Shown here one piece after another: positions 22,234-48,737 of a stretch of 64,000 nt of DNA. This DNA comes from Alphaproteobacteria bacterium (GTDB lineage Bacteria; Pseudomonadota; Alphaproteobacteria; MPNO01), in the NCBI GenBank assembly GCA_965202835.1, contig CBDBCA010000006.1:1731828-1795827 (forward strand). The letters run 5' to 3'. Position 1 is the stretch's first letter. Each line of letters opens with the position of its first letter. A program made the translations under genes and the position numbers. The notes beneath the pieces are model-generated. The model had not been told where the DNA came from and searched no databases. It worked only from the letters and a program-made list of their open reading frames with translations.

Positions 22234-23505
22234 CTACTTGATGCTCCGCACCCAGTCGAGGGTCTTGGTGCCGAGCGGCGGGTTGATGTCCTCCGCCTTG
22301 TGGTGGACGATGTTCTCGAGGACCGCGAAACCGTATTTCTTCGAGAACTTGGTCACCCCGACCAGCCCGCCATGCACCGCCTGGTGATCGGGCCGCATGG
22401 TGATGGTGCCGCTCGGCGTCTCCCAGCTCAGGTTCTCGAAGGCCTTGATCACCTCCTCGGTGGTGGGCCACCGCCCCGCCATCTCGATCGCCTTCTCGTA
22501 GGCGCCTTTCAACCCGGACCACGCCTGGTAGGTGCGATAGGCCGGGTAGTCGGGATAGCGCTTGTTGTGCGCGTAGACCGCGGCGACGAAATCCTGATGT
22601 GCCTTGCTCCCCTTGAGGGCGAAGAACCCGGCGGTCGCACGCGGCGCCGCGACCACGCCGTCGGGCATCGACTTGCCGACGTTCTGCAGCACCTGCTCCC
22701 CGGTCGAGAGCAGCACCAGGCTCTGGTCGAACAGCCCGCGCGGCCGCGCCTGCTTGATGAAGGTGATCAGCCCGCCGCCCCAGAAGCTGGAGTGGACGAC
22801 GTCGGGGCGCGACGCCAGAAGGCGGGAAATTTCGGCCGAGTATTCGCCGGCCTGGAACTTGGTCCAGAGCTCCGCGACCACCTTGACGTCGGGCTTGAGG
22901 CGCTGCATCGCGATCTTGAACGCCTCCCAGGAATCGCGGCCCCAGGCATAGTCCTCGTTGGCGCCGGCGATGGTCTTGATGTTCGGATTGACCGAGAGCG
23001 CGTAGCGCGCCAGCGAGACGCTGTCGCCGGCCTGGTTGGAAGCCGTCCGGAAGACGTATTTGAGCTTGTTGTCCTCGGTCAGGCGGTGGGTGCCGCAGAC
23101 ATGCACCACGGTGAGCACCTTGAGCTCCTCGGCCACCGGCGCGATGGCCAGGCAGTTGCCGCTCGAGGTGTAACCGACAACGGCGTCCACCTTCTCGTCG
23201 AGGACCAGGCGCCGCAGCTCCGAGACCTGCTTCTTCGGGCCTCCGCCCTCGTCGACCAGCACCAGGTCGATCGGAACGCCGCCGATGCCGCCTTCCTTGT
23301 TCCACTTGGCGACCAGCCACTCGGACGTGCCCTTGCCGGACACGCCGAACACCGCCGCGCCGCCCGAGAAGAAGTCGACGAACGCCACCTTGAGCGCCTT
23401 GGGCGCCCCCTTCGGCGGGGCCGCGGCCGCGCCGAACGCCATCGCCCCGGCGGCGAGCGCGCCGAGGACGAACGCGGGAATCCTGAATTTCGAAATTTGC
23501 CGCAT
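22234..23505 (-). CDS. Leu/Ile/Val-binding-protein-family SBP (LivK-like), operon 1
   Basis: Start MRQISKFRIPAFVLGALAAGAMAFGAAAA (signal peptide), then a Peripla_BP_6-like pattern. Confidence 0.85.
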   Translation of the reverse strand: MRQISKFRIPAFVLGALAAGAMAFGAAAAPPKGAPKALKVAFVDFFSGGAAVFGVSGKGTSEWLVAKWNKEGGIGGVPIDLVLVDEGGGPKKQVSELRRLVLDEKVDAVVGYTSSGNCLAIAPVAEELKVLTVVHVCGTHRLTEDNKLKYVFRTASNQAGDSVSLARYALSVNPNIKTIAGANEDYAWGRDSWEAFKIAMQRLKPDVKVVAELWTKFQAGEYSAEISRLLASRPDVVHSSFWGGGLITFIKQARPRGLFDQSLVLLSTGEQVLQNVGKSMPDGVVAAPRATAGFFALKGSKAHQDFVAAVYAHNKRYPDYPAYRTYQAWSGLKGAYEKAIEMAGRWPTTEEVIKAFENLSWETPSGTITMRPDHQAVHGGLVGVTKFSKKYGFAVLENIVHHKAEDINPPLGTKTLDWVRSIK

Positions 23506-23658: not shown

Positions 23659-24303
23659 TCAGTGCGGGACGATGCTGCCGCGCTCGATGACGTAGGTATC
23701 GTCCAGAAGGGGAGCGATGTGAACGTCGTTCGATTCCGCGACCAGCACCGACTCGCCCTCTTCCTTGAGACTGGCGAGAATTTCGACCATCCGCTGGGCG
23801 AAAACCGGCGCGATACCCTCGCTGGGCTCGTCGAGCAGCAGCAGTTTGGTGCCGCACATTATGGCGCGGGCGAAGGCGACGAATTTCTGCTGCCCGCCGG
23901 ACAGCGTCGTCGCGCCGCGATTGCGGAACTCCTCGACCTCGGGCATCAGCCCGTAGATCCACTGCAACCGCTCTTCCGCGCCCTCCGACCTGGTCGACCA
24001 GACCGGCAGCATGATGTTCTCTTCCGCCGTCAACTCGGGCACCAGGCGGCGATCCTCCGGCATGAATCCGATCCCGAGATGGGCGCGGCGGAAGGCGTGC
24101 GAGTTGCCGAGGTCGAGATGCTCGAACTCGATCGATCCCTTCTGCAGCTTGAGCGCGCCCATGATCGCGCGCATCACCGTCGTCTTGCCGGCGCCGTTGC
24201 GGCCGATCAGTCCGCACATTGCGCCGGGTGGCACTTCGAGAGTCACCCCCCGTAGAATCTCGGTGGCGCCGATGCTGACGTCGACGTCCTTGACGGTGAG
24301 CAT
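23659..24303 (-). CDS. LivF-like ABC ATP-binding protein, operon 2
   Basis: C-terminal 214 aa of ORF 23659..24855 (MLTVKDVDVS..., GRNGAGKTT, LSGGQQKF). ATG at 24303, overlapping the LivG stop (ATGA). Confidence 0.85.
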   Translation of the reverse strand: MLTVKDVDVSIGATEILRGVTLEVPPGAMCGLIGRNGAGKTTVMRAIMGALKLQKGSIEFEHLDLGNSHAFRRAHLGIGFMPEDRRLVPELTAEENIMLPVWSTRSEGAEERLQWIYGLMPEVEEFRNRGATTLSGGQQKFVAFARAIMCGTKLLLLDEPSEGIAPVFAQRMVEILASLKEEGESVLVAESNDVHIAPLLDDTYVIERGSIVPH

Positions 24304-25097
24304 CAGCCGGCCTCCCCTTCGCTCGCCCCGTTCTCGGAGCGCGCCCGGTGGTATTCCTTGCCGATGACGAATTCCTGCACCAGCGGATCGACCATCGCCT
24401 GTTCGGTCGGCGCGTCGCAGATGATCTCGCCCTGGGAGAAGGCGAGCACCCGGGAGACGTAGCGCTCGACGATCTCCATGTCGTGCTCGATGAACAGGAC
24501 CGTCGTCTCCTCCTCCTTCAGCGCCTGCATCAGGATGTCCATGATGCCGAACTTCTCCTCGGCGCTGATGCCGCTGGTCGGCTCGTCGAGCATCAGAAGC
24601 TTCGGCTTGCGCACGGTCGCCATCGCGATGTCGAGCAGCTTGCGCACGCCCTGCGGCAGGGCCGATGCCGCGACGTCGCGGTAATCGGCGATCTGGTAGC
24701 GGACCATGTGCGCGTCGACCCGGCCCGCCCGGTCGCCGCGCATCAGCGCGCCCAAGAGGCCCAGCCCGTCTCGCTCGGCGATGCCGAAGGAGATCATCAG
24801 GTTGTCGAACACCGATTCCGACAGGAAGACCTGCGGGACCTGGAACGAGCGGCACAAACCGAGCCGGGTGATGGCGCGTACCGAACGCCCGCGGATGTCC
24901 CGCCCCATGAACTCGATCCTGCCCTCGCTCGGCGGCAGGTAGCCAGTGACCATGTTGACGAAGGTGGTCTTGCCTGCACCGTTGGCGCCGATCACGCCGA
25001 TGGTCTCGCCTTCCTCGATGACGACGTTTATGTCGTGGGCCGCGACGACGGCGCCGAAGCTCTTCTCGAGACCCTGCACGTTCAGTACGACAGACAT
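24303..25097 (-). CDS. LivG-like ABC ATP-binding protein, operon 2
   Basis: Start MSVVLNVQGLEKSFGAV... (ATG at 25097). GANGAGKTT motif. Confidence 0.85.
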   Translation of the reverse strand: MSVVLNVQGLEKSFGAVVAAHDINVVIEEGETIGVIGANGAGKTTFVNMVTGYLPPSEGRIEFMGRDIRGRSVRAITRLGLCRSFQVPQVFLSESVFDNLMISFGIAERDGLGLLGALMRGDRAGRVDAHMVRYQIADYRDVAASALPQGVRKLLDIAMATVRKPKLLMLDEPTSGISAEEKFGIMDILMQALKEEETTVLFIEHDMEIVERYVSRVLAFSQGEIICDAPTEQAMVDPLVQEFVIGKEYHRARSENGASEGEAG

Positions 25098-25102
25098 CGG
25101 CC

Positions 25103-26095
25103 CTACGCCTTCTCTTGTTCGGCTGGCGCTTCGAGGCGGTTGCGCTCCGCGCGCTTCTTGTTCCAGCGATCGACCAGGGACCACAGCCCGTTGGGCAGGA
25201 ACATGATGATCAGCAGCAACGTCCCGCCCATGATGAGCTGCCAGATGCCGGGGAACTGCTCGAACGCGTAGGTGCGGATCAGCTCATAGAGCAGCGCGCC
25301 GATGAACGGCGCGCCGACATTCCCGGTGCCGCTGAGGATCGCGATGAACACGAAGTCGCCGGAAATCGGCCAATAGGCCATCGAGTCGGGATCGACATGG
25401 CCGATGGTCATCGCGGCAATGGCGCCGCCGAATCCGCCCACCAGGCCTGAGATCGTGTACTTGACGTGGATCGCCCGCTCCGCGGAATAGCCGAGATATT
25501 CGAGGCGGATTTCGTTCTCCCGAACAGCCGTCGTCATGTAGCCGAGCGTCGAGCGGAGATAGTGATGCACCGCCATCGCGACGCCCCAGGTCAGCACCGC
25601 GGCGAAGAAGAACAGCGTGGTCTTGTTCGCGGCGCCCTCCGGCGCGTACCAGAGATAGGTCGTCCGTTCGAGGCTGATGCCGTCGGTCGAACCCAGGCTC
25701 TCCAGCTTTGCGAGCACGCCGTAAAGGATCATCGAGAAGGCGAGGTTCAGGAGCGCGAAGAAGATGCCCCGGTAGCGCCTGAGCAGGAAGCCGAGGATCC
25801 AGGCGAACCCGCCCGCCACGACGACACCGCAGGCGATGGTGAAGAACGCGTCGGTGATTCCGAGATACTTGACGATCAGGGCCACCGTGTAGGCGCCGAA
25901 ACCGTAAAACAGCGCGTGGCCGAAGGAAATCAGCCCGCAGCGCCACAGCACCAGCAGGCCGAGCGCCACCGAACCGCGCGCAAGCGAGAGCAGCAGGATC
26001 GCCCGGAACCACTCCGGTATGAAAAAGTTGACGACGATCAGCAGGGCCAGACCGATGGTCAGCGCCCAAGTCGTCTGGTCCATGTATTTCGTCAT
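25103..26095 (-). CDS. LivM-like ABC permease, operon 2
   Basis: Real start MTKYMDQTTWALTIG... (ATG at 26095; ATGA overlap with LivH). The upstream 249 ORF residues are junk. Confidence 0.85.
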   Translation of the reverse strand: MTKYMDQTTWALTIGLALLIVVNFFIPEWFRAILLLSLARGSVALGLLVLWRCGLISFGHALFYGFGAYTVALIVKYLGITDAFFTIACGVVVAGGFAWILGFLLRRYRGIFFALLNLAFSMILYGVLAKLESLGSTDGISLERTTYLWYAPEGAANKTTLFFFAAVLTWGVAMAVHHYLRSTLGYMTTAVRENEIRLEYLGYSAERAIHVKYTISGLVGGFGGAIAAMTIGHVDPDSMAYWPISGDFVFIAILSGTGNVGAPFIGALLYELIRTYAFEQFPGIWQLIMGGTLLLIIMFLPNGLWSLVDRWNKKRAERNRLEAPAEQEKA

Positions 26096-26994
26096 ATCTT
26101 CCTCGGCCTGGCGGGGGCGAACAGACCCTGGGGCCGGACGATCAGGACGATCGCCATGATCATGTAGATGACGAACAGTTCCAGCACCGGCTCCAGATGG
26201 ACCGCCGCGGCGCGGGCGATGCCAACCACCACGGAACCGATCAGGGCGCCGGGGATCGACCCCATGCCGCCGATCACCACGACCGCGAAGGCGAGCACGA
26301 TGACCTCCACCCCGATTCCCGGCTGAACCGAGATCGCGGGTGCCTGATAGGCGCCGCCGAGAGCGCCGAGGAACGAGCCCACCATGAAGGTGAGCAGGAA
26401 GATCATGGTGACGTTGATCCCCATCGCCTGAGACAGCTCGCGGTCGTAGATCACCGCCAAAAGCATCTTGCCGAAGGTGGTCCGCCTCAGCCCGTACCAA
26501 AGCACGGCGGCGACCAGCGCCGACAGCGCGATCATTGACAGGTTGTAGTTGTCGAAGGGAAGTTCGGCGATATCGGTTTGGCCGAGCAGCGCCAGCGGCT
26601 CGGCCGCGATATAGGGGTTCGTCCCCCAGATCAGCAGCAGCACGTCCTCGAGGATCAGGAACGCAGCGAAGGTCGCCAGCACGATGATGTGCTCGTCCTC
26701 GGCGTAGAGGAACTGGAGCAGCCCGCGCTCGATGATGATCCCGAAGACGATTCCGAGAAAGATCGCGGTCAGCGCCATGATGACGAAGGCGCCGGCTCCG
26801 GGCCAGCCGGTCTCGGCGTAGACGATGAGAATCGTCGCGCACAGATAGGCGCCGAAGGCATATAGCGATCCGTGCGTGACGTTGAGGATCTTCTGAACGC
26901 CGCAGATCACCGTCAGCCCGACGGAAACCATGAACAGGTAGGAGGCGTAGACCAATCCGTCGATCAGGATGATGAGTAGGAGTTCGGTGTCCAA
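26092..26994 (-). CDS. LivH-like ABC permease, operon 2
   Basis: 300 aa, LivH-like. Confidence 0.85.
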   Translation of the reverse strand: MDTELLLIILIDGLVYASYLFMVSVGLTVICGVQKILNVTHGSLYAFGAYLCATILIVYAETGWPGAGAFVIMALTAIFLGIVFGIIIERGLLQFLYAEDEHIIVLATFAAFLILEDVLLLIWGTNPYIAAEPLALLGQTDIAELPFDNYNLSMIALSALVAAVLWYGLRRTTFGKMLLAVIYDRELSQAMGINVTMIFLLTFMVGSFLGALGGAYQAPAISVQPGIGVEVIVLAFAVVVIGGMGSIPGALIGSVVVGIARAAAVHLEPVLELFVIYMIMAIVLIVRPQGLFAPARPRKI

Positions 26995-27809
26995 CGGTCT
27001 GACCCCGTTAGCGGAAGCGCGGTTCCGGCAAATCGTGTGCGTACAGGCGAACGAGGGTCCGGGCGCCGATCGTCGGCGCCCGGACCGTTCGTTGCCTGAT
27101 TGGGACTAGGGCGTGGTCAGCCGCACTTCGCGCCTTTCATCCCGCCTTCGAGCCATGGGACGGACTCCACGCCGTCGGGCGGATTCACGCAATCGGGCTG
27201 GAAGACGACCACGTCCTTGACCACCATTTCGCCCTTTTTCTCGTCCCAGACGGTGACGCCCCAGCGATCCTCGGTGACCGCCTGATGCCCGTCGCTCAGC
27301 GCCATCCTCACCGTGCCGGCGAGCGACGTGTAGGTCGCGCCTTCAAGCGCCTTGATCACCTGGTCCGTGGTCGGGAACTTGCCGCCATTGTCCTTCATTG
27401 CCTTGTCATAGGCGTATTTGGCCCCGAGGATGCCCTGTGCGTACTGGTAGGTAGGCTGCGCCGGCGGATAACCGTAGGTCTTGCGGTATTCCTTCTGGAA
27501 CCAGTTGTTGAGCGGCGTGTCGATGCCGACCGCGTACATCCCATAGGGCCCCCGCGTGCCGATGATCTGGCCTTCCGGGAACTTCCTGCCGAGCCGGTAG
27601 GCGACCGTCTCGCCGACCGTGAGGATGAACGTCTTGCGCTTGAACAGTCCGCGCGCGTTGGCCTGGGCGATGAACGCTTCGAGATCGCCGCCCCAGAAGC
27701 TGGAATGAACCACCTTCGGCTTCGCCCGGAGCAGCGCCGAGATCTCGGAGCCGTACTGGCCGGAGAACAGCTTGGGGAACTGCTGCTTCCCCTGATCGGC
27801 GATCAGAAA

Positions 27810-29689
27810 GATTTGGTCACCCGGTTGGGCCATTGATTACAATGGGTTGCGCAGACAACCCGCCCCGAGGGGCGTCACCAACCGGGTGAAGATCATGGTC
27901 CCTTGTTATCGCTCTCCGATCAAGCTCGAAGTGACGCGGGATGGTACGGCCGCGACGGCGCGCGGCGGTCTGGTGCTGCTGTTCGAGGTTCTGGCGTCGC
28001 GGCGCATCCTGGCCGGGCTGCCGCGCTGCGGCGGCAGCCCGTCGCAGGGCTGGAGCGACGGCCAGATGATGCTGGCGGTGCTGGTTCTCAACGTTGCCGG
28101 CTTCGACCGGGTGTCGGACATCGAGCATCTGGAGGCCGATACGGGTCTTTGCGCTCTGGTCAGGCGGTTCGAGCCGAAGCTGTTGGGTCTGTCGAGGGGT
28201 GCGGTCGCGCGGCGGTTCCGGGGCGGTCGCGAGCGCTGCTTTCCCTCGGCGCGTTCGCTGCGCGACTGGCTCGACCGTTTCCATGTCGCTGGGGTGCACG
28301 ATGTCGAGAGGGAGAAGGGCACGGCGTTCATCCCGCCGCACACGGAACGCCACGAGTTGTTCCGGGCGGTCGCCCGCCGCCTTGTGGCCGAAGGGGTACG
28401 GGAGGCCGTCGCGGCGTCGGTGACCATCGACCTCGACGCGACGATCATCGCGTCCGGCAAGCGCGAGTGTCTGTATACCTACCGTGCCGCGGAGAGGCTG
28501 GTTCCGGGCGAGCGGGGCTACCAGCCGCTGGTCGCGTTCTGCCCCGAGATCGGGATGGCGCCGTGGCTGGAGAGCCGCGACGGCAACGTGCCGGCGGCGC
28601 TGGACAACCGGCGGGCGCTCGAGGAGGCGCTGTTGCAGCTTCCCGGCGCCGTGCGCCAGGTCACCCTCCGCACCGATGGGGCGGGCTACCAGGAGGATGT
28701 GATCCGCGCCTGCAACGACCCCGCCTTCCGCCGGGCGGAGACGCGGCGCTTCGGCACGGTGGGGCTGATCTGCGGCGCCACCCGTTCGGAGCCGCTGATG
28801 GCGGAGGTGGCGCGGCTCGCCGACGACGCCTGGCGCCCGGCGAAGGGGCCGGTGGAGACGCCGGACGCCGGGCCGGCGTCGGACAGTGTGGCGCTTGAAT
28901 GCGCCGAACTGCCCTACGTCCCCGCGACAACCAACGGACTGAAGCCGCGCCATGTGATCCGCTACGTCGTCACCCGGCGCGCCCTTCCCGGGGCGCTGGG
29001 CCTGGACGAGGGCGACCTCCCGGCCGCCGATGGCAGGCCCGCCTACAGGATCAGGGCCTACATGACCAACTTCCCGGCCCCCGACGCGATCCGGGCGGAA
29101 AAGGCGAACGGCCTGAGGGTGCTGGACGCCGCCGAGGTCGTGGCCGCGGCCCACGAGCGCTGCGGACGCGGCGAGGAGGTGCACGCGGTGCTCAAGTCCG
29201 ACCTCGCCGCCGGGACGATGCCGTCGGGGCGGTTCGGGGCCAACGCCGCCTGGCTGTGGCTCGCGGCGCTGGCGCTGAATGCGATGGCGCTGGTGCGCCG
29301 CGCCGCCTACGGCCCCGAGTGGCGCTGGGTGCGGATGAAGCGCATCCGCGCGATATGGATCCACCTCGTCGCCCGCGTCGCGCGTCACGGGCGCCGGGTC
29401 ACCCTCGTGCTCGGCGGCGCCGGCGCCCATCTCCTGGCGGCGCGCCGGCGGATCCACCTCGCCATGCCGCCGCCGGCATCCGCGCCCGGCTGACCCCGGC
29501 GCGACAGTTCGACGCGACAAGGCGGACCCGGCACGGCACCGGAGGGCGTTGCGCGCGCCCAACGCGCCGGTGAAGACCCAACCATCACGAAGAGGCCGCC
29601 GGCCCCGCTCCGTTGCCGCGTCAAGCTCACGCCGGCAGCCCAAATCGACGACCCGGCATGACCGGACGGCCCTGCCGATGGCCGAAATC
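27810..29689 (+). mobile_element. IS1380-family insertion sequence (about 1.88 kb)
   Basis: Imperfect 22-bp terminal inverted repeats: gatttggtcacccggttgggcc at 27810 and gatttcggccatcggcagggcc on the opposite strand at 29689. Single transposase ORF. Flanked by cagaaa on both sides. It interrupts the SBP gene. Confidence 0.75.
27847..29493 (+). CDS. IS1380-family DDE transposase
   Basis: N-terminal pattern RDGTAATARGGLVLLFEVL...LAGLP...SDGQMMLAVLVLNVAGFDRVSDIEHL, TIDLDAT motif, and about 500 aa length typical of the family. The true start may be the internal Met at 27895. Confidence 0.75.
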   Translation: MRRQPAPRGVTNRVKIMVPCYRSPIKLEVTRDGTAATARGGLVLLFEVLASRRILAGLPRCGGSPSQGWSDGQMMLAVLVLNVAGFDRVSDIEHLEADTGLCALVRRFEPKLLGLSRGAVARRFRGGRERCFPSARSLRDWLDRFHVAGVHDVEREKGTAFIPPHTERHELFRAVARRLVAEGVREAVAASVTIDLDATIIASGKRECLYTYRAAERLVPGERGYQPLVAFCPEIGMAPWLESRDGNVPAALDNRRALEEALLQLPGAVRQVTLRTDGAGYQEDVIRACNDPAFRRAETRRFGTVGLICGATRSEPLMAEVARLADDAWRPAKGPVETPDAGPASDSVALECAELPYVPATTNGLKPRHVIRYVVTRRALPGALGLDEGDLPAADGRPAYRIRAYMTNFPAPDAIRAEKANGLRVLDAAEVVAAAHERCGRGEEVHAVLKSDLAAGTMPSGRFGANAAWLWLAALALNAMALVRRAAYGPEWRWVRMKRIRAIWIHLVARVARHGRRVTLVLGGAGAHLLAARRRIHLAMPPPASAPG

Positions 29690-30549
29690 GCGCCGACAGA
29701 AAATCAGCTCGCCGATCAGGGGCTTCTTGGCGGCCTTGACGTCCGGCGCCACGATCTTCATCGCGAGGCTGAAGTCGCGCCACGAATCCTGACCCCACGC
29801 ATAGTTCTGATTGAGCCCGATAAAGCCGTCCTTGAGCAATTCCGGGTGCTTCATGGAGATATAGCGCGCCGCGCCCGTGTTGTTGCCCGTACCGTGGCTC
29901 ATGGTGCGGAACAGGTATTTCGGCTTCTTCACCAGCTCCTCGAAAACCCGCGGCGTTCCGCAGACCGTCATCAGGGTGAGAACCTTGACCTCTTCCGCGA
30001 CACGGGCCACCGCCGCGCAGGTGCCGGACGAGATATAGCCGACCACCAGATCGACGCCGTCCTTCTGCACCTTGTTACGCAGCTCGGTCACCTGCTTGGT
30101 CCCGCCGCCCGCCTCGTCGTAGATCAGCGGCTCGATCTTGCGACCGGCAAGGCCGACACTGTTGTAAGGTGCCGGAAGCTCGCCGTTGTTGATCCCGCGG
30201 ATGATGAGCTCGACGCCCTCCTTCGCCGGAATACCGAAGGCCGGAGCGCCGGCACCGGTCAGGAATGTGGGGACGCCCATCTTGACGGTCTGTGCGGTCG
30301 CGGCGCCGGCAACCAGTGCCACCCCCGCCACGGTCGCGAGCAAGACCGCAGTTCTCCCCTGTCCATGCTTCATGAAAACCTCCCGCATGTTCATTGGAAT
30401 CGGTCGAAGAGGCCGTAAACTGCCAGCCCGGCCGCACTCATGCAAGCCGCGCGGCGGCAAAATTACGCGGGAGCGGTCGCGCCCGCCGCTCATCGCATTC
30501 TTCCGCCATTCGGTGGAATACACCACAGCGATCTGTCCGATTTTCCGCG

Positions 30550-30645
30550 GCCATCTCGGTCGTCGTCGTATTCCGCGGCGACGATCTACTGCTGATCAGG
30601 CGCGCCAAGCCTCCAGTGTCGGAGAACCGGAGGATTCCCGTCGAA
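30550..30645 (+). pseudogene. 5' fragment of a NUDIX hydrolase gene (duplication scar)
   Basis: Roughly 80-85% nucleotide identity by eye with 36791..36885 of the intact NUDIX gene. Translates to VVVFRGDDLLLIRRAKPPVSENRRIP, versus VVVLRGDEVLLIRRAKPPVSDNWSIP in the intact gene. Confidence 0.6.
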
Positions 30646-30753
30646 GCGCGGAAGATCAGCCAGTCTCCGGCTGCGGGGCAGTCCGCATATGGTTCGAACT
30701 CCGGGTCGCCCGGGAACGGGGCCGCGCGGCCCCGTTCCCCAAGATCGGGTACG

Positions 30754-31923
30754 CTATTTCTTCACGTTGACGTATTTGCCGCCGACCACCTTGAGTATGG
30801 CGCTCGCACCCGAGCCGTCGCCCACCTCGTTCATGGTCGTCTCGCCGGAAATGCCGTTATAGCCCTTCAACTCGGCCCAGCCCTTGCGGATGCGGTCCCG
30901 ATCGGCGTCGAGATCGCCGGGCTTGTTGGTGACCCCCTGCCCCTCCATGATCATCTTGAGGATGTGCGTGGAGTCGTAGGAGCGAGGACCGCCATAGGGT
31001 GGCTTCTTACCCTTGTTTACGGCCTGAATCTTCTTCACATAGGCTTGCACGGCCTCGCGCGGGTCGTCGATCCAGGCGGCTGTCGACATGTAGCTGCCCT
31101 CGGTCGCCTTGCCGCCTAGCTGGATGAATCCCGGCGCGCCCGCGCAAGCGCCGCCGACGAAGGGCGCGTTCAGTCCCTGCTTGCGCGCCTCCTTGGCGAT
31201 CCCGGCAGCCTGCTGGTAGCAAGAACCCAGCGCGATTCCATCGGGGTTGAGCGCCTTGGCCTTGGTGATCTGCGCCGAGAAATCGGTGTCCTTGGTCCGG
31301 TAGGTCAGCATGCCGAGCTGCTTGACACCGTATTTCTTCAGCAACACCGGAAGGATCTTGGCGCCTTCTGCCTTGGAGACCGCGTCTTCCAGGTCATGGA
31401 TGATCACGGCGGATTTGATCTTGTACGCGTCGACCCACGCCTTCACGACCGGGTCGAGCTGCTTGTCGCTCGTCAGCGTGTTCCTGAAGGCCCAGGAACT
31501 CATCGCCGAAAGCCCGGGCTTGGACGAGCAGTACGAGATCATCGACACCTTGTAGCGGTCGAGCTGGGGCGCCAGGATTTCGTAAATCGAACTGAAGCAG
31601 GGTCCGAACACCGCGAGTACCTTGTCGCGGGTCACCAGTTTCTTGAAGCCCTTGATGCCCTCGGACTCCTTCGACTGGGTGTCCCAGAAGATAACCTTCA
31701 ACGGAACGCCGCCGATGCCACCCGCGGCGTTGATCTCGTCCTGGGCGATCTTGATCGACTCACGCGCCGTGTAGCCCCACTCGGCCCCCTTGCCGGTTAT
31801 CGGCACCAGGGCGCCGACCTTCACCGACCGTCCCGAGAGCTTCGCTGCCTCGGGCATCGCCGAGAACGCCACCAGCGCTGCTGCGCCCGCAGCGGTCGCC
31901 AGAAATGACTTGTTTCCGATCAT
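30754..31923 (-). CDS. LivK-like SBP, operon 3
   Basis: Start MIGNKSFLATAAGAAALVAFSAMPEAA (signal peptide). Peripla_BP_6-like. Confidence 0.85.
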   Translation of the reverse strand: MIGNKSFLATAAGAAALVAFSAMPEAAKLSGRSVKVGALVPITGKGAEWGYTARESIKIAQDEINAAGGIGGVPLKVIFWDTQSKESEGIKGFKKLVTRDKVLAVFGPCFSSIYEILAPQLDRYKVSMISYCSSKPGLSAMSSWAFRNTLTSDKQLDPVVKAWVDAYKIKSAVIIHDLEDAVSKAEGAKILPVLLKKYGVKQLGMLTYRTKDTDFSAQITKAKALNPDGIALGSCYQQAAGIAKEARKQGLNAPFVGGACAGAPGFIQLGGKATEGSYMSTAAWIDDPREAVQAYVKKIQAVNKGKKPPYGGPRSYDSTHILKMIMEGQGVTNKPGDLDADRDRIRKGWAELKGYNGISGETTMNEVGDGSGASAILKVVGGKYVNVKK

Positions 31924-31971
31924 CGAGAACCTCCCTTGGATTTCCTGCAAGAATAGTCGCGTTCGGCGACA

Positions 31972-32748
31972 TCAGGTAGCCCCGGTTTCGGCGGAGGCGC
32001 CATGCTTCTGTACCGTCAACGATCCGGCCTCCGCGTCGGCGCTCTTCCCCAGATAGGTATTCTGAACCCCCGGGTCGTTCAGGAGGTCGACGCCCGAGCC
32101 CTCAAGAGCGATCCGCCCCCGCTCCAGCACGTAACCTCGATCGGCGAGTTGGAGGGCACGCCGGGCATTTTGCTCGACGAGGAAGATCGTATTCCCCTCG
32201 AGCCGAAGATCCCGCAGCGTACGGAATATCTGGGTTACGATCATCGGCGCCAGTCCGAGCGACGGCTCGTCCAGCAGCAACAACCTCGGCCTCGCCATCA
32301 GCGCCCGACCGATCGCAAGCATCTGCTGTTCGCCGCCGCTCAACGTCCCGGCCAGCTGGGCTTGCCGTTCGTGAAGCGCCGGGAATTTCTCCAGGATCTG
32401 GCTTATGTCCGCGTCGATTTCTCCGTCCCGCCTCGTATGGGCACCCATCTTGAGGTTTTCGAGCACCGTCATACGCTTGAGGATCGCCCGCCCCTCCGCG
32501 ACCTGACAAATCCCCATCTCGACTGTTCTGTGGGCCGGAATTCGAACGATGTCGCGGCCCTCGAAAAGTATGCGTCCAGCGCTCGGGCGGATCAGCCCGG
32601 AAATGGTCTTCAGCAGTGTCGTCTTTCCGGCGCCATTGGCGCCGATAAGCGCGACGATCTCGCCGCGCTCGATGGTTAGCGCCACCCCGTGCAGCACCCG
32701 GATCTGACCGTAACCGGCGCGGAGATCGTCGACCTCGAGAATGGTCAC
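31972..32748 (-). CDS. LivF-like ABC ATP-binding protein, operon 3
   Basis: GANGAGKTT and LSGGEQQM motifs. 258 aa. Confidence 0.85.
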   Translation of the reverse strand: MTILEVDDLRAGYGQIRVLHGVALTIERGEIVALIGANGAGKTTLLKTISGLIRPSAGRILFEGRDIVRIPAHRTVEMGICQVAEGRAILKRMTVLENLKMGAHTRRDGEIDADISQILEKFPALHERQAQLAGTLSGGEQQMLAIGRALMARPRLLLLDEPSLGLAPMIVTQIFRTLRDLRLEGNTIFLVEQNARRALQLADRGYVLERGRIALEGSGVDLLNDPGVQNTYLGKSADAEAGSLTVQKHGASAETGAT

Positions 32749-33545
32749 AGCGTCTCCTCTTCGCCGAGATAGGCCTCGATCACCGCCCTGTCGCGCTGCA
32801 CTTCGGACGGACGGCCTTCGGCGATCTTGTCGCCGAAATTGAGCACCGTGATCCAGTCCGAAATCCCCATCACCAGATTCATGTCGTGTTCGACCAGGAC
32901 GACGGTGACGCCCCGGTCTCGCACCCTGCAGATCAGCGCGTCGAGATCCTCGGTCTCGCGGATGTTCATCCCGGCCGCCGGCTCGTCGAGCAGCAGGAGG
33001 CGGGGCTCCATCGCCAAAGCTCGGCCCAGCTCCAGGAGCCGTTGCTCTCCGTAGGGCAGATCAGTCGCCATGGCGTGGCGCTTGCCGGCAAGTCCGACGA
33101 ATTCGAGGGTTTCCAGCGCCCGCCGGCGCATCTCCGTCTCTTCCCGGGCCTCGCCGAACGGGCGGTGCAACGCCGCCTTCACAAACGATCGCCAGAGCGA
33201 GGGGTAGGTCCGCCAGTGTTCTCCCAGCATCACGTTTTCCAGCACGGTCATGTGCCCGAAGAGACGAATATTCTGAAAGGTCCTGGAGATCCCGAGCGCC
33301 GCGCGCCGATGCGGCCGCAACCGCCCGAGCGGCCGGTCGCGAAAGCGGATTTCTCCCGCGTCGGGCGCCATCACTCCGGACAGGAGGTTGAACAGGGTCG
33401 TCTTGCCGGCGCCATTGGGGCCAATCACCGCGTGGATGGTTCCCTCGCGTACCGCAATATCGACATCGCGAAGCGCGTGGAACCCGCCGAACCGCTTCGT
33501 CAGTCCGGAAGCAAGGAGACAGGGATTCTCGGCCGTCTCAGGCAT
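32745..33545 (-). CDS. LivG-like ABC ATP-binding protein, operon 3
   Basis: LTKRFGGFHALRDVDIAV and GPNGAGKTT motifs. Confidence 0.85.
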   Translation of the reverse strand: MPETAENPCLLASGLTKRFGGFHALRDVDIAVREGTIHAVIGPNGAGKTTLFNLLSGVMAPDAGEIRFRDRPLGRLRPHRRAALGISRTFQNIRLFGHMTVLENVMLGEHWRTYPSLWRSFVKAALHRPFGEAREETEMRRRALETLEFVGLAGKRHAMATDLPYGEQRLLELGRALAMEPRLLLLDEPAAGMNIRETEDLDALICRVRDRGVTVVLVEHDMNLVMGISDWITVLNFGDKIAEGRPSEVQRDRAVIEAYLGEEETL

Positions 33546-34485
33546 TGTCCATTCGCCGCTGGACGAACTGGAACGGTCGCACCGTATTCCTGGTGATCAG
33601 GCCCTGCGGTCTCAGCACCATCATGACGATGAGAACGAGGCCGTAAACGATCAGGCGTTTCTCGTTCTCGAAGTCGAGGAATTCATAGACGGTGTCGTAC
33701 AGGTAATTCCACGGCGCGTCCTCGGTCCACGAGACCGGGATCAACTCCATCGGATCCCGCAGCGCACGCAGGAATTCCGGCAACAGGGACAAAAACATCG
33801 CACCGAACAGCGGTCCCCAATAGCTGAATCCGCCGCCGACGAGTACGAACATCAGGATCTCGACGCCGACAAGGATGTTGAACGTGACCGAGTCGACATA
33901 GGTGGAGTAGTGGGCGAAGAGCGCGCCGGCAAGGCCGGCGATGAAGGCGCCCAGACCGAAGGCGAACAGCTTGATGCGCACGACATCGATGCCCATTACC
34001 TCGGCCGCGGTCTCGTCCTCATGGATGGAATCCATCGCCCGCCCAAGGCTGGAGCGCTCGAGACGGGCAAAAAACACGATGAGGACGGCGACGACGGCGT
34101 AAATCCAGACCAAGGAGTTTTCCAGGAAAGGTATGTTCTGAAAGCCCTGTGCGCCGCCGGTGTAGTCCCATGTCAGGATGATCACCTGAACGATCTCGGC
34201 GAACCCGAGCGTTAGCAACAGCAGGTAAATTCCCCTGATCCGAAGCGCCGGGAATCCGACCCCGACTCCGATGAGCCCCGCCGCGACGCCGCCGGCCAGA
34301 AGACCGAGCGGGAACGGCAGCCCGAGCTTGGCGGTAACGATACCGGCCGCATAGGCCCCCACCCCCATGAATCCGGCCTGTCCGAGAGAGATCTGACCGG
34401 TCTTGAACGGAACATAGAAGCTGAAAGCGGCGATGACGTTGATGCCGGCAAAGATCAGCACCGACCGGATGTATTCGTCGATCAT
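33538..34485 (-). CDS. LivM-like ABC permease, operon 3
   Basis: 315 aa, hydrophobic, LivM-like. Confidence 0.85.
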   Translation of the reverse strand: MIDEYIRSVLIFAGINVIAAFSFYVPFKTGQISLGQAGFMGVGAYAAGIVTAKLGLPFPLGLLAGGVAAGLIGVGVGFPALRIRGIYLLLLTLGFAEIVQVIILTWDYTGGAQGFQNIPFLENSLVWIYAVVAVLIVFFARLERSSLGRAMDSIHEDETAAEVMGIDVVRIKLFAFGLGAFIAGLAGALFAHYSTYVDSVTFNILVGVEILMFVLVGGGFSYWGPLFGAMFLSLLPEFLRALRDPMELIPVSWTEDAPWNYLYDTVYEFLDFENEKRLIVYGLVLIVMMVLRPQGLITRNTVRPFQFVQRRMDNA

Positions 34486-34499
34486 CTCGCGCGCGCCAC

Positions 34500-35375
34500 C
34501 TAGCCCGACTCGATGGTCCGCGTGCCGAACAATCCGGTGGGCCGGTAGAGCAGCAGCAGGATCAGTATCAAGAAGGTGAAGAAGTCGCGTACGCTGGTTC
34601 CGAGATAGCTCGCCGTGAGGATCTCGACCATTCCGAGCAGGATGCCGCCTACCATCGCGCCAGGCACGTTGCCCAGCCCACCGAGCAACATGACGACCAG
34701 CGCCTTGACCGCGACCTCCAAGCCCATATGGGGGGTGATGGCGCTGTTCTTGACCCCGTCCAGTACCCCGGCGATGCCGGCGAGCGCGGACGCGACGATG
34801 AAGGTGACCACGACCACGCGATTGACGTCGACGCCGAGCAGGGCGGCGGTCTCATGACTCTCCGAAGTCGCCCGGATCGCGCGGCCCATCCGGGTCCGGT
34901 CGATGAACAGCCAGAGCGCCGCCATGGACAGGAGCGCGATCACCAGAATGAAGATTTGCACCGAGCTGATGGTTAGCGGTCCGATCCGGTAGAGCACTTG
35001 TTCGATCGTCTCGGGGAACGCGACCTGCTCGCCGCCGAAGATATTGATCGCCAGGTTCTGCAGCACGATGGTAACTCCGATCGTGCTGATCAGGGGGGCC
35101 AGAGGATAGTTCTTGTCGACCGGTTGCACAGCGAACCGGGCAACGATCCAGCCGACCAGGGCGGTGATGACCATTGCGCCGGCGATCGCCACGTAGATGT
35201 TGGCGAAGGCGAACCAGAGGACGATGTGGAGGCCGACGAACGCGCCCACCATGAACACCTCGCCATGTGCGAAATGGAGCAGCCGCAATACGCCGAAGAT
35301 GAGGGTGTAGCCGATCGCGACCAGTGAGTAGGACGCACCCAGCATCAACCCATTGATGAGTTGCTGGCCCAGCAT
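34500..35375 (-). CDS. LivH-like ABC permease, operon 3
   Basis: Real start MLGQQLINGLMLGASYSLVAIGYTLIFGV (ATG at 35375). Confidence 0.85.
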   Translation of the reverse strand: MLGQQLINGLMLGASYSLVAIGYTLIFGVLRLLHFAHGEVFMVGAFVGLHIVLWFAFANIYVAIAGAMVITALVGWIVARFAVQPVDKNYPLAPLISTIGVTIVLQNLAINIFGGEQVAFPETIEQVLYRIGPLTISSVQIFILVIALLSMAALWLFIDRTRMGRAIRATSESHETAALLGVDVNRVVVVTFIVASALAGIAGVLDGVKNSAITPHMGLEVAVKALVVMLLGGLGNVPGAMVGGILLGMVEILTASYLGTSVRDFFTFLILILLLLYRPTGLFGTRTIESG

Positions 35376-35616
35376 CGCGTTTGCGAAGTTCCCGAAGGTC
35401 GTCTGCCAGTTGGTCTCAGCGCAGGCTATGGACTTGCGTTGGCGAAGGCAACGCGCGGGGCGTCCTGCAAGAACCGGCCTGAGTCTCGATTTCGACCGAT
35501 CCGTTGTTCGGTGTAGCGGATCGGATCCAACCGCCAACTCTTCGCGAGGTCAGAGGTTTTCGGCTTGACGACCAGCGTTCGGACCGTCCCGTTCGACATC
35601 GGCTGCACGAGCCCGC

Positions 35617-35988
35617 TTACGCCCGCCGCCAGAATATCTCCGCCTTCGAACCCGGTCCGTAGGCGATGCTGGGCTCGGCGGTCAGGGTCATGGTGTCGCC
35701 GTCGAGGCTCACCTTCCGGCGTTGCCTGGTGCCGCGCAGATCGGAGCGGGAACTCATCTCGATGGTATGGACGTTCTCGCCCTCCAGGCACTCCAGCAGG
35801 CCGCAATAGGTCAGGTGATCGGTGCCGCCCGCGCCGTCCGGCCGCTCGACCGAGCACGACATGTGGCCGTCGGCGGCATAGAAGATGTAACCCTTCGCTT
35901 CCGTCCACGGTCTCGACACGGTGCCGTCCGCCGCCGTCAGCCGGTAATCGGCGAGCCGCCAGGTGCCGATCAGTTCCTCGCGTACCAT
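35617..35988 (-). CDS. lipocalin-like domain protein
   Basis: Start MVREELIGTWRLADYRL... (ATG at 35988), then the lipocalin-like GTW...YIFYAADGHM pattern. The upstream part of the ORF is junk. Confidence 0.55.
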   Translation of the reverse strand: MVREELIGTWRLADYRLTAADGTVSRPWTEAKGYIFYAADGHMSCSVERPDGAGGTDHLTYCGLLECLEGENVHTIEMSSRSDLRGTRQRRKVSLDGDTMTLTAEPSIAYGPGSKAEIFWRRA

Positions 35989-41903: not shown

Positions 41904-42638
41904 ATGACGGAAAGCACGAACCAACCGACGATAGTCGTCACCGGCGGCGGCAGCGGGGTCGGCTATGCCATCGTCCACCGCGCGCTGGCCGGAGGCTACG
42001 CGGTGTCGGCCTGGGACGCGGACGAAGGCTGTCTCGCCGGGATGAACCGGCCGGATTTCTCGTTCTACCGGCTCGACGTCCGCGACAAGGCGGCGATGGA
42101 CCGCGCGGTGTCCGGAATCGTGGAGGCCGGCGGGACAATCGTCGGTCTCGCCGCCTGCGCGGCGGTCTACAAGCCCGTCCCGTTCCTCGATCTCGACGAC
42201 GAAGCCTGGGACCGGCATCTCGACATCAACCTCAAGGGCACGCTGCTCGCCAGCCAGGCGGTGCTGCCCGAGATGCGCCGCGCGGGCAAGGGGGCGATCG
42301 TCATGTTCTCGTCCTCGATCGCGCGCAACGGCGCCGCAGGGGGCGCGCATTACGCCGCGACCAAGGGCGGCGTGCTGGGGCTCGCCCGGGCGATGGCGCT
42401 GGAAACGGCGCGCGACGGTATCCGCGTCAACGCGATCTCGCCCGGAGTCACCGACACGCCGCAGCCGCGCGGGCACCGCAGCCAGGCCGATCTCGACGCG
42501 GCGGCGGCGGCGAACCCGATGGGACGCATCGGCGAGCCGGAGGACATGGCGGAAGCCGCGCTGTTCCTGATGGAAGACGATTCGAGCTTCGTCACCGGCC
42601 AGGACCTCCGTATCAACGGCGGCCGGCTGATGATCTAG
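41904..42638 (+). CDS. SDR-family oxidoreductase
   Basis: TGGGSGVGYA, Ser-Tyr-Lys triad (SSS...YAATK). 244 aa. Confidence 0.8.
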   Translation: MTESTNQPTIVVTGGGSGVGYAIVHRALAGGYAVSAWDADEGCLAGMNRPDFSFYRLDVRDKAAMDRAVSGIVEAGGTIVGLAACAAVYKPVPFLDLDDEAWDRHLDINLKGTLLASQAVLPEMRRAGKGAIVMFSSSIARNGAAGGAHYAATKGGVLGLARAMALETARDGIRVNAISPGVTDTPQPRGHRSQADLDAAAAANPMGRIGEPEDMAEAALFLMEDDSSFVTGQDLRINGGRLMI

Positions 42639-42649
42639 GGACCGGGGGT

Positions 42650-43387
42650 ATGGGCAGCGTTCTGATAACCGGCGCCGCCAGCGGGATCGCGCGGGCCGCG
42701 GCGATGCGTCTCGCCGGGCACATGACGGTATACGCCGCCGACATCGACGCCGACGGGCTGGCGGAGACCGTCGACGCCATCGGGGCCTCGGGCGGCGGCG
42801 CGAAGGCGATCCGCGTCGACGTCTCGGACCGCGCATCGGTGGAGGACATGGTGGAGGCCGTCGACGGAAACATCGACGCCGCGTTCTTCGCCGCGGGTAT
42901 CCACATCAGAGGCACCGCCGAGACCGTATCCGAGGAAGACTGGGATCGGATGATCGGCGTCCACGTCAAGGGCACGTTTCTCTGCTGTCAGGCGACGCTC
43001 CGCCGCATGCGGGCGCAAGGCACCGGCGGAGCGATCGTCACCATGTCGTCGGACTACGCGGTGATGGCAGTGCCGGGGGGCGCCGCCTATTGCGCCGCAA
43101 AGGCCGCGATCCATTCGCTCACCAAGTCGATCGCCCAGGAATTCGCGCCGGACGGGGTACGCATCAACGCGCTGGGCCCCGGTCCGATCGACACCCCGAT
43201 CCTGCGCGCCGGCCGGACGGAGGAAGAATACGATGCTGCCCGGAAGAGGCTCGCGGACAATTTGCCGATCGGCCGTCTGGGCCAACCGGAGGAGGTCGCG
43301 GCGGTGGTCGATTTCCTGCTGAGCGAGCGGTCGTCCTACATCACCGGGCAGATCGTCCACCCGAACGGCGGCCAGCTCACCTGGTAG
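42650..43387 (+). CDS. SDR-family oxidoreductase (second, tandem)
   Basis: ATG at 42650 inside long ORF 41711..43387. ITGAASGIA, YCAAK. 245 aa. Confidence 0.8.
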   Translation: MGSVLITGAASGIARAAAMRLAGHMTVYAADIDADGLAETVDAIGASGGGAKAIRVDVSDRASVEDMVEAVDGNIDAAFFAAGIHIRGTAETVSEEDWDRMIGVHVKGTFLCCQATLRRMRAQGTGGAIVTMSSDYAVMAVPGGAAYCAAKAAIHSLTKSIAQEFAPDGVRINALGPGPIDTPILRAGRTEEEYDAARKRLADNLPIGRLGQPEEVAAVVDFLLSERSSYITGQIVHPNGGQLTW

Positions 43388-43394
43388 CGCGCCT

Positions 43395-44228
43395 TCAGGC
43401 CGGGATTACCCGGTCCTTGCCCTTGATCTGGATGCGGTAGCCCGACCGCGTATTGGGATGGTAGTCCCAGATCGCGAAATGATGCGTGCACCGGTTGTCC
43501 CAGAACGCGACCGAATGGGGCTGCCAGCGGAAGCGCACGTGAAAGTTGGGGTGCTCGCAGTGGCGGTAGAGAAAACCGAGGATCGCGTCGCTCTCGGCCT
43601 TCGAGACGCCGCATATGTGGGACGTGAAACCGGGATTGACATAGAGCAGCTTGCGTCCGGTGACCGGGTGCTTCGCGACCATCGGCTGTTCGGTGACCGG
43701 CAGCTGGTTGGTCGCCGTACGGGAGAACGCGCCGGCGCCGTCATGCACCGCCGTCATGCCTTCGAGATAACGCTTCATCGCCGGCGACAGCGCCTCGTAA
43801 GCCGCGTACATGCTCGCGAACATCGTATCCCCACCGCCCGCCGGGGGCACGGTGTGGATATAGAGGACCGTGCCCATGGGCGGGGTTTCCATGCACGACT
43901 GGTCGGTGTGCCAGGTCTCGTTGCCGGACACCGATTTCGAGTTCTCGTCGAAATGGAGCGCACGCACTTCGGGGTATTCCTGAAGCTGTTTGGAGTTGGT
44001 GCCGTCGCCGCCGACGCTGACGTGAAGCTTCCCGAAATGCTCGCCAAGCGCCTTCTGGGTTTCGTGGGTCAACTCCTGGTCGCGGAAGAACAGGACCTGG
44101 TGCTCCATCAGCGCATCGTGCAGATCCTCGACCGTCGGGGCGTCCAGCGGGCGGGTGAGATCGATGCCTTCCACGAGTCCGCCGATATTCGGCGTCACCG
44201 AGGTCACTCTGATCGTGTTGTGGCCCAT
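43395..44228 (-). CDS. TauD/TfdA-family Fe(II)/2-oxoglutarate-dependent dioxygenase
   Basis: C-terminal 277 aa of ORF 43395..45308 (MGHNTIRV..., HTDQS and HxD...H pattern). Convergent with SDR2, with only an 8-nt gap. Confidence 0.85.
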   Translation of the reverse strand: MGHNTIRVTSVTPNIGGLVEGIDLTRPLDAPTVEDLHDALMEHQVLFFRDQELTHETQKALGEHFGKLHVSVGGDGTNSKQLQEYPEVRALHFDENSKSVSGNETWHTDQSCMETPPMGTVLYIHTVPPAGGGDTMFASMYAAYEALSPAMKRYLEGMTAVHDGAGAFSRTATNQLPVTEQPMVAKHPVTGRKLLYVNPGFTSHICGVSKAESDAILGFLYRHCEHPNFHVRFRWQPHSVAFWDNRCTHHFAIWDYHPNTRSGYRIQIKGKDRVIPA

Positions 44229-44323
44229 GATCGTTCCCTTCGGCCAAGGCACAAGGAGCATGCGCGTACGGTCCGCAGCGGAAACCGAGGATGGCCGCAA
44301 ATTCCCCGCCGGGCAAGCCGTCG

Positions 44324-48370: not shown

Positions 48371-48446
48371 GTCCGAACTGTAGGACCGGGAGGAAGGGCT
48401 GAGCGGTGGCGCTGGGTTTCGGGACGCCAAGGACAAGGAACGGCCG

Positions 48447-48737
48447 GTGAGCAGAGACGAGGTCCTGGCCCTGCTGCGGGCGCATAAGCCGGTGCTCGAA
48501 CAACGCTTCGGTATCGCCGATCTCGCCCTGTTCGGCTCGTTCGCTCGCGACCGGGCCAGCGATGAGAGCGATGTCGATATCCTGGTTCGTTTCGACGAAC
48601 CGCCGGATTGGCGTCGGTACTTCGGCGCCCAGTTCTATCTGGAGGATCTGCTCGGCCGCCCGGTCGATCTGGCGACGGACAAGACGCTCCGGGCTGAATT
48701 GCGCCCCTATGTGGAGCGGGAGGCGGTGAATGTCTGA
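48447..48737 (+). CDS. nucleotidyltransferase antitoxin (MNT)
   Basis: GSFARDRASDESDVDILV (GS-x9-13-DxD NTase motif). 96 aa. Overlaps hepT by 8 nt. Confidence 0.8.
   Translation: MSRDEVLALLRAHKPVLEQRFGIADLALFGSFARDRASDESDVDILVRFDEPPDWRRYFGAQFYLEDLLGRPVDLATDKTLRAELRPYVEREAVNV

Follow-up and report, generated by a model that had tools for sequence, protein, structure and literature searches.

Insertion sequences of the IS1380 family are about 1.5-2.0 kb long and carry a single transposase ORF that fills most of the element, bounded by short terminal inverted repeats (TIRs), typically starting with CC, and flanked by target-site duplications (TSDs) of 4-5 bp. Among the described members, IS1247 has a length of 1672 bp, IR of 16/13 and DR of 5 bp (PMC3281130). 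Strong outward promoters are known in some members of the family, e.g. ISEcp1 and ISPme1, these two being notable for the combination of the outward promoter with one-ended mobilisation of adjacent DNA, i.e. transposition-module formation (PMC9330008).

The element considered here lies in a 64,000-nt stretch of a contig of an uncultured alphaproteobacterium (referred to as the window), where it was expected to belong to the IS1380 family and to interrupt the gene for the periplasmic binding protein (SBP) of the middle Liv-like ABC transporter operon; the profile matches and the collinearity of the gene halves bear this out. Like IS1247, ISEcp1 and ISPme1, it encodes a single DDE transposase fitting NF033539 / PF13701, and, as generally in the family, one ORF occupies most of the element, the short TIRs begin with CC, and the element is present in multiple near-identical copies. 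The length of its target duplication is the same as in IS1247. In size, single ORF, short TIRs, TSD and the putative DDE+K residues it agrees with the IS1380 family, though it is longer than the family examples (1932 bp, with a transposase of 532 aa), and, in contrast to ISEcp1 and ISPme1, shows no evidence of an outward promoter or one-ended mobilisation. The element is a new, divergent member of this known family.

Boundaries of the element

The features of the element, with the evidence that supports them, are as follows.

27790..29721, plus strand: complete insertion sequence of the IS1380 family, 1932 bp (shared ends and differing flanks in 15 other copies)
27790..27802, plus strand: left terminal inverted repeat CCCTGATCGGCGA (13/13, perfect against the right end; repeat search)
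29709..29721, minus strand: right terminal inverted repeat, the reverse complement of CCCTGATCGGCGA
27785..27789, no strand: left TSD copy GCTTC, 5 bp
29722..29726, no strand: right TSD copy GCTTC, 5 bp (single copy at the empty-site locus L058)
27895..29493, plus strand: transposase gene, intact, 532 aa (NCBIfam NF033539 IS1380; Pfam PF13701)

The ends were fixed by comparison of several copies, and not by repeats seen near the IS. Fifteen further 1932-bp copies (L001-L015), coming from two related assemblies, have exactly the same ends as the window copy, and the sequences diverge outside the element. The inverted repeat CCCTGATCGGCGA matches in 13/13 positions at both ends and is identical in these 15 copies; moreover, it is conserved in relatives with transposase identity of 65-79%. 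Over the set of other copies, the TSD is 5 bp in most cases (n=11), less frequently 6 bp (n=3) or 4 bp (n=1), and absent in one (n=1); the clade of 79% identity likewise shows a 5-bp TSD. Between its ends, the element consists of a 105-bp leader, one ORF of 1599 bp and a 228-bp 3' region.

The first-pass annotation had described a 1.88-kb element with imperfect 22-bp TIRs (27810-27831 and 29668-29689) and CAGAAA as the duplicated target (27804-27809 and 29697-29702), the insertion being probably accompanied by a small deletion or rearrangement that left no clean frame at the junction. Both 22-mers are real, similar to each other and located near the ends, and CAGAAA is present on both sides, but the 22-mers and the hexamers alike recur in all 15 other copies whatever the flank, and hence are internal IS sequence; in addition, 7 bp separate the right 22-mer from CAGAAA, whereas the ends at 27790 and 29721 give a perfect 13-bp repeat, a 5-bp TSD and an exact frame. 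This description, to which we ascribe an extremely low probability, is refuted by the multi-copy comparison together with the in silico excision (see below). Visual selection of repeats close to an IS can thus yield internal sequences, and it is the comparison of multiple copies that fixes the ends.

An exact match to the 13-bp repeat at positions 50566-50578 was considered as a candidate solo end and rejected; it is explained by chance, since the match does not continue past these 13 bp, and the GC-rich window contains matches to dozens of further 13-mers from the IS. A Pfam scan of about 54 ORFs, which covered the window except for about 5 kb of gap regions, revealed no second transposase or integrase. 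The ORF following tRNA-Pro (40683), a possible integrase marking an island boundary, turned out to encode an enzyme of the proline-racemase family, and the tRNA was the only finding of the Rfam scan of the window.

Transposase and family assignment

A single ORF is situated between the gene halves, as had been reported, and it matches only IS1380 models. NF033539 (IS1380) is the sole NCBIfam match (E 4e-49, profile positions 2-416 of 419), its score of 167.3 bits being below the curated cut-off of 180, and Pfam PF13701 gives 73.5 bits against the gathering score of 34.7; with matches to IS1380 profiles and to no other IS-family profile, the assignment holds at the family level, the equivalog score being sub-threshold.

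In the alignment of 20 homologues (28-82% identity), D181, D261, E427 and K434, as well as D179, are invariant or nearly so, and the window copy has all five. Of these, D181 (or D179), D261 and E427 are the candidate catalytic residues, with K434 located 7 residues after the glutamate. Compared to the relatives of 470-510 aa in this alignment, the transposase has about 50-100 additional residues, and the extra length is comprised of three insertions relative to relatives of ~478 aa.

The tblastn search of the transposase against 72,556 PLSDB plasmids yielded no named IS1380-family element. The lone weak match (24% identity, query coverage 50%), to a gene whose product is annotated as having unknown function, thus places the element in a divergent branch of the family. 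No name for the protein was found in the sources searched, and the element qualifies for registration as a new IS of the IS1380 family.

Putative promoter and structured leader

Two features were identified in the region preceding the transposase gene.

27814..27843, plus strand: promoter-like site TGGTCA-18-TACAAT, ahead of the transposase gene (consensus scan)
27817..27889, plus strand: structured transposase leader (repeat search; consensus fold across 14 elements)

The site TGGTCA-18-TACAAT, the only sigma-70-like match of the consensus scan in 26900..30700, is the putative transposase promoter, and its TACAAT box is kept in most clade members. A perfect inverted repeat of 12 bp, with arms at 27817-27828 and 27878-27889, encloses two small hairpins together with the -10 box, and stops 5 nt short of the transposase ATG. 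In the consensus fold of 14 elements, 92.5% of cells are paired, compared to 29-53% in slid controls. Four of the five pairs of the inner helix are compensatory, and the outer stem is almost invariant, with covariation confined to one pair in two sequences.

Leader hairpins of IS10 and IS50 give protection from read-through transcription. The arrangement observed here is similar, as the -10 box of the transposase gene is preceded by one arm of the leader inverted repeat, and the second arm lies immediately in front of the start codon, so that a hairpin occluding the translation start could form only on transcripts entering from outside. By this structural likeness, the leader hairpin may play a role in read-through protection.

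The disrupted SBP gene

The gene interrupted by the element comprises the following parts.

27117..30373, minus strand: disrupted SBP gene, whole locus
29722..30373, minus strand: SBP 5' part, codons 1-217, with a signal-peptide-like N-terminus (tblastn, 94% identity; Pfam; translation)
27117..27789, minus strand: SBP 3' part, codons 217-439 and stop (tblastn, 97% identity; Pfam)

In its present state, the N-terminal ORF reads into the IS and stops at 29627. Peripla_BP_6 positions 1-160 are found on 29627..30373 (minus strand) and positions 176-330 on 27117..27833 (minus strand), and, with the intact orthologue as the tblastn query, residues 1-217 map to 30373..29723 and residues 217-438 to 27788..27123. 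Both halves also align collinearly with the intact paralogue at 22234..23505 (37-41% identity), and this part of the earlier description stands. Exact-sequence look-ups of the N-terminal fragment and of the intact paralogue gave no matches.

Removal of the IS together with one GCTTC copy in silico restores the frame exactly, yielding an uninterrupted ORF of 439 codons, whose product is identical to the intact orthologue P0001 in 420 of 439 positions, with 0 gaps. The peptide AAKKQQFPKLF of the intact orthologues spans precisely the insertion site, and the uninterrupted site would read ...CTGCTGCTTCTTGGC... in the DNA. The search for an uninterrupted SBP gene elsewhere, suggested previously, yields the syntenic empty locus L058 with an intact orthologue, where the two window halves cover the site with a 5-bp overlap (L058 8648-8652). 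At the DNA level, identity to the nearest intact loci is about 87-90%. The ungapped reconstructed ORF and the empty site leave no place for an accompanying deletion or rearrangement.

Taken as they stand, both fragments are ORFs with start codons, as they would be if they were naturally separate genes with the IS merely located between them. Still, every close orthologue is one continuous protein of 439 aa, the ends of the fragments are encoded by the IS, and removal of the IS with one TSD copy joins the halves with single-nucleotide precision; the single-protein orthologues and the exact join refute this reading, whose likelihood we regard as practically nil. Somewhat less remote, yet still very improbable, is an assembly artefact, by which a multicopy IS was misplaced into an SBP gene that is in reality intact. 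The IS is indeed multicopy in related genomes (at least 7-8 copies each), and repeats are classic misassembly sites, but a misjoin would not yield a 5-bp target duplication exactly flanking complete IS ends, nor would it keep the gene halves collinear in the original orientation.

With high confidence, we therefore interpret the locus as a simple insertion of an IS1380-family element into the first gene of a HAAT/Liv-type operon, with a 5-bp GCTTC duplication and nothing else lost or rearranged, the SBP being inactivated, the event recent and downstream polarity probable. The appropriate annotation for the two SBP fragments is accordingly a single pseudogene split by a mobile element, for which exact coordinates, inverted repeats and TSD are given.

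The transporter operon and its ligand

Downstream of the SBP gene, the operon contains four genes, preceded by an intergenic hairpin.

27056..27086, minus strand: strong hairpin between the SBP and permease genes, with no T-run after it (MFE fold; conserved in L058 and L059)
26092..26994, minus strand: permease, intact (tblastn against the L058 protein)
25103..26095, minus strand: permease, intact (tblastn against the L058 protein)
24303..25097, minus strand: ATPase, intact (tblastn against the L058 protein)
23659..24303, minus strand: ATPase, intact (tblastn against the L058 protein)

The four genes, in the positions of livHMGF, have full-length tblastn matches with 92-96% identity to the L058 proteins, in agreement with their previous description as intact, and the gene order is the same in L058-L061. 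The hairpin may be involved in mRNA stabilisation or attenuation, judging from its predicted fold.

Of the three Liv-like (HAAT-type) operons, the disrupted one occupies the middle position, and it shares the canonical order SBP-permease-permease-ATPase-ATPase of the HAAT operons (LivJ/LivK-type, TC 3.A.1.4). The reconstructed 439-aa protein, with a complete Peripla_BP_6 type-I fold signature and accompanied by two BPD_transp_2 permeases and two ABC ATPases, has the features of a HAAT SBP. The former label of a LivK-like SBP is thus valid at the family level, but not as a LivJ/K equivalog, since the N-terminal half scores 46.9 bits on NCBIfam PRK15404 against the cut-off of 477; the intact paralogue reaches 62.8 bits on the same model, and the UrtA equivalog gives 22.8 bits for the window SBP against the cut-off of 493. 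Genes for a LigB-type dioxygenase, a ring hydroxylase and CoA ligases are located nearby, and therefore ligands other than branched-chain amino acids may be considered. By these comparisons, "Liv-like" denotes family resemblance only.

Proposed event and its consequences

According to the proposed mechanism, the 1932-bp IS transposed into codons 216-218 of the 439-codon SBP gene, and staggered target cleavage followed by repair duplicated the 5 bp GCTTC, with no deletion and no rearrangement. The SBP is inactivated, leaving an N-terminal fragment with an IS-encoded tail of 31 residues and a promoterless, signal-less C-terminal fragment. The insertion is likely recent, because the reconstructed SBP ORF has no further lesions and the IS copy, at 99.7-99.8% identity, differs from the others in only 3-6 of 1932 positions.

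The transposase gene is oriented opposite to the operon, and transcription of the downstream genes hence has to pass about 1.9 kb of the IS, giving antisense RNA that is not translated, which probably reduces their expression by polarity. A polar loss of downstream transporter expression is plausible, and the transporter in this genome should be treated as probably non-functional.

A real but non-polar insertion, with an outward promoter of the IS keeping the permease and ATPase genes on, perhaps to serve another SBP such as those of the adjacent paralogues, seems unlikely. It would be consistent with the strong outward promoters of IS1380-family members (PMC9330008), the lack of decay in the downstream genes and the presence of two paralogous SBP genes nearby. 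However, the IS end concerned points not to the permease genes but to the 5' half of the SBP gene, in antisense, no minus-strand promoter-like site was found by the consensus scan anywhere in 26900..30700, and a recent insertion accounts equally well for the intact downstream genes. Within the IS, the same scan revealed neither an outward promoter nor a terminator likely to influence the operon, this being a weak negative. Returning to the polar insertion, the loss of one among three paralogous transporter operons to an IS is commonplace where genomes are rich in IS.

Other copies and relatives of the element

The many near-identical copies, located at differing sites and having their own TSDs, provide indirect evidence suggesting transposition activity. 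An identical transposase protein is encoded on 24 contigs, some of which have clearly different coverage within one metagenome (about 34x, 26x and 9.6x). It is possible, though we propose it only tentatively, that the element represents a distinct IS1380 subgroup, with transposases of about 500-530 aa bearing the three insertions and a conserved structured leader, which at present is active and spreads by horizontal transfer among uncultured bacteria sharing a habitat. Relatives with 65-80% identity occur in MAGs labelled Alphaproteobacteria, Rhodospirillales, Candidatus Marinacidobacterium and Candidatus Binatia, and one relative with 49% identity is found in a gammaproteobacterial MAG.

Insertion into the SBP gene

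Two minus-strand ORFs in 27117..30373 together make up one type-I periplasmic binding protein (SBP) of the middle operon, half in each, with a single transposase ORF between them:

30373 to ~29722, minus strand: SBP 5' fragment, Pfam Peripla_BP_6 profile positions 1-160
27789 to 27117, minus strand: SBP 3' fragment, Peripla_BP_6 profile positions 176-330
27895..29493, plus strand: transposase ORF, 532 codons
27785-27789 and 29722-29726: target duplication GCTTC, on both sides of the element

Both SBP fragments are collinear with the intact paralogue at 22234..23505 (37-41% identity); this alignment and the profile coverage agree with the first-pass annotation, which had described collinear halves separated by one element. 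Judging by sequence, the "Liv-like" label of the SBP is justified at the family level only.

At 27790-27802 and 29709-29721 the element is bounded by inverted repeats that match perfectly, CCCTGATCGGCGA, and an independent repeat search recovers the same pair. Fifteen other copies, seven on one 9.4-Mb metagenomic contig and eight in Alphaproteobacteria MAG CBDBCG01, are each exactly 1932 bp long, differ from the window copy in 3-6 positions, start with CCCTGATCGGCGA and finish with its complement, while the flanks beyond are wholly divergent. Direct duplications at the flanks of the copies comprise 5 bp in eleven cases, 6 bp in three and 4 bp in one, and are lacking in one. The imperfect 22-bp terminal repeats (27810-27831/29668-29689) and the flanking "cagaaa" duplication proposed earlier have to be reassigned: every copy contains the two 22-mers as well as the two CAGAAA hexamers, which thus are internal sequence of the element, not a target duplication.

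The copy without a target duplication is L007, from the metagenomic contig. L008, one of the eight in the MAG, and L031, outside the fifteen, adjoin sequences resembling the element's own end, which suggests that they inserted into or next to the terminus of another copy. A further copy outside the fifteen, L033, is truncated, retaining transposase residues 1-300 only.

Intact SBP orthologues have 439 aa, are up to 96% identical, and natively read ...AAKKQQFPKLF... across the break, so that the true break points lie further outward than first placed. If 27790..29721 and one GCTTC copy are excised in silico, what remains is an ORF of 1320 nt (439 codons) whose product is identical to the orthologue P0001 in 420 of 439 positions with no gaps, the insertion point being at codons 216-218. 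Moreover, L058, where P0001 is encoded, is a syntenic locus (lipocalin-like gene, SBP, permease, permease, ATPase, ATPase, second SBP, etc.), and in BLASTN comparison with it one alignment of the window halves ends at 8652 and the other begins at 8647/8648; the 5 bp common to both (8648-8652) are the signature of an empty site. The gap-free ORF and the empty site refute the small deletion or rearrangement suggested previously: at the sequence level the insertion is clean, with no deletion. It amounts to an ordinary gene disruption, and the SBP is inactivated, leaving two fragments: the N-terminal one has an element-encoded tail with its stop at 29627, and the C-terminal one lacks a signal peptide.

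Transposase and family assignment

In NCBIfam, which has one model per IS family, the sole match of the transposase is NF033539, "IS1380 family transposase" (E = 4e-49, profile positions 2-416 of 419), with a score of 167.3 bits, below the curated cut-off of 180 bits. The IS1380-type domain PF13701 (DDE_Tnp_1_4) is matched at 73.5 bits, above its gathering score of 34.7, and the two matches bear out the IS1380-type assignment made from the sequence alone. Alignment with 19 homologues (28-82% identity) shows no or almost no variation at D181 (with D179), D261, E427 and K434, and the window copy has them all; from this conservation we infer that D181/D179, D261 and E427 are the catalytic D, D and E, with the lysine seven residues past E.

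Three insertions account for the extra length of the transposase over its ~478-aa relatives. The tblastn search of 72,556 plasmids gives one weak match (24% identity over half of the query), whose gene carries the annotation "protein of unknown function". The sub-threshold profile score, the extra length and the single weak plasmid match place the transposase in a divergent branch of the family. All examined features of the family are present: the profile, DDE residues, single ORF, size, short inverted repeats starting with CC, and 5-bp duplication. The latter is shared with IS1247 (1672 bp, IR 16/13, DR 5 bp; PMC3281130), while the window element is 1932 bp long. The element belongs to a known family, of which it is a new and divergent member.

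Distribution of the element

In all, 24 contigs encode the exact 532-aa transposase. Among those from one metagenome, ERZ25068511 (L062-L067), are contigs with coverage of ~34x, 26x, 11x, 9.6x and 4x, and these differences suggest that several co-resident genomes share nearly identical elements. Gene disruption is seen with other copies too, e.g. the one in L062, which splits a CoA-transferase gene. The ends of relatives at 65-85% identity, CCCTGATCGGCG or CCCTAGATCGGCG, are similar, and their duplications also measure 5 bp; the MAGs that host these relatives carry the labels Alphaproteobacteria, Rhodospirillales, Candidatus Marinacidobacterium and Candidatus Binatia.

The operon after the insertion

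The genes downstream of the SBP and the intervening spacer are:

27056..27086, minus strand: hairpin with a 14-bp stem and no T-run, between the SBP stop and the first permease gene
26092..26994: permease, full length
25103..26095: permease, full length
24303..25097: ATPase, full length
23659..24303: ATPase, full length

These four genes are 92-96% identical to their L058 counterparts and are intact, as noted at first pass. Relative to the operon, the transposase gene runs in the antisense direction. Consensus scans detect no minus-strand promoter-like site in 26900..30700 and no terminator within the element, and the 122-bp SBP-permease spacer holds only the strong hairpin, conserved in L058 and in another syntenic locus (L059); downstream transcription presumably still starts from the SBP promoter. 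Such transcripts would cross ~1.9 kb of untranslated RNA to reach the permease genes, and polarity on the downstream genes is likely. The end at issue for outward promoters of IS1380-family relatives faces away from the permease genes here. The probable role of the hairpin is mRNA stabilisation or attenuation, setting the SBP:permease expression ratio.

Leader of the transposase gene

Two features precede the transposase ATG:

27814-27843: sigma-70-like site TGGTCA-18-TACAAT
27817-27828 and 27878-27889: perfect 12-bp inverted repeat, bracketing the TACAAT box and stopping 5 nt before the ATG

The former is the only sigma-70-like match of the consensus scan in 26900..30700, and most clade members keep its TACAAT box. 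In a comparison of 14 elements, pairing in the leader structure reaches 92.5%, compared to 29-53% in slid controls. The inner hairpin shows compensatory changes in four of five pairs; the outer stem, nearly invariant, is weakly supported by the sequence comparison. Protection against read-through is described for IS10 and IS50, and, by analogy with their similar arrangement, the leader stem may protect against activation by read-through transcription. Structured leaders are seen in the window (27817..27889) and in L016, L025-L029, L036, L038 and L045-L051.

Rest of the window

Pfam scans of ~54 ORFs, covering the window except ~5 kb of gap regions, reveal no other transposase, integrase or recombinase, and the window holds no second copy or remnant of the element, in line with its initial description as the only mobile element in the 64 kb. 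After the single tRNA (Pro, 40683) the next gene belongs to the proline-racemase family and is no integrase gene. The longest ORFs on both strands of 42635..44378 (~1.7 kb), between genes of a short-chain dehydrogenase and a glucose/sorbosone dehydrogenase, have no Pfam match. At 48384..49095 (plus strand) a nucleotidyltransferase (NTP_transf_2) gene adjoins a HepT-like RNase gene, a pairing typical of MntA/HepT-type toxin-antitoxin modules.

The third, upstream Liv-type operon (30488..35628) is absent from the syntenic L058 and L059:

34500-35537 and 33538-34485, minus strand: permeases
32745-33545 and 31972-32748, minus strand: ATPases
30754-31950, minus strand: SBP, last in the permease-permease-ATPase-ATPase-SBP order

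The lipocalin-like gene of these two loci directly adjoins the SBP promoter region, the difference being a 5.1-kb indel whose edges carry no obvious repeats or mobile genes.
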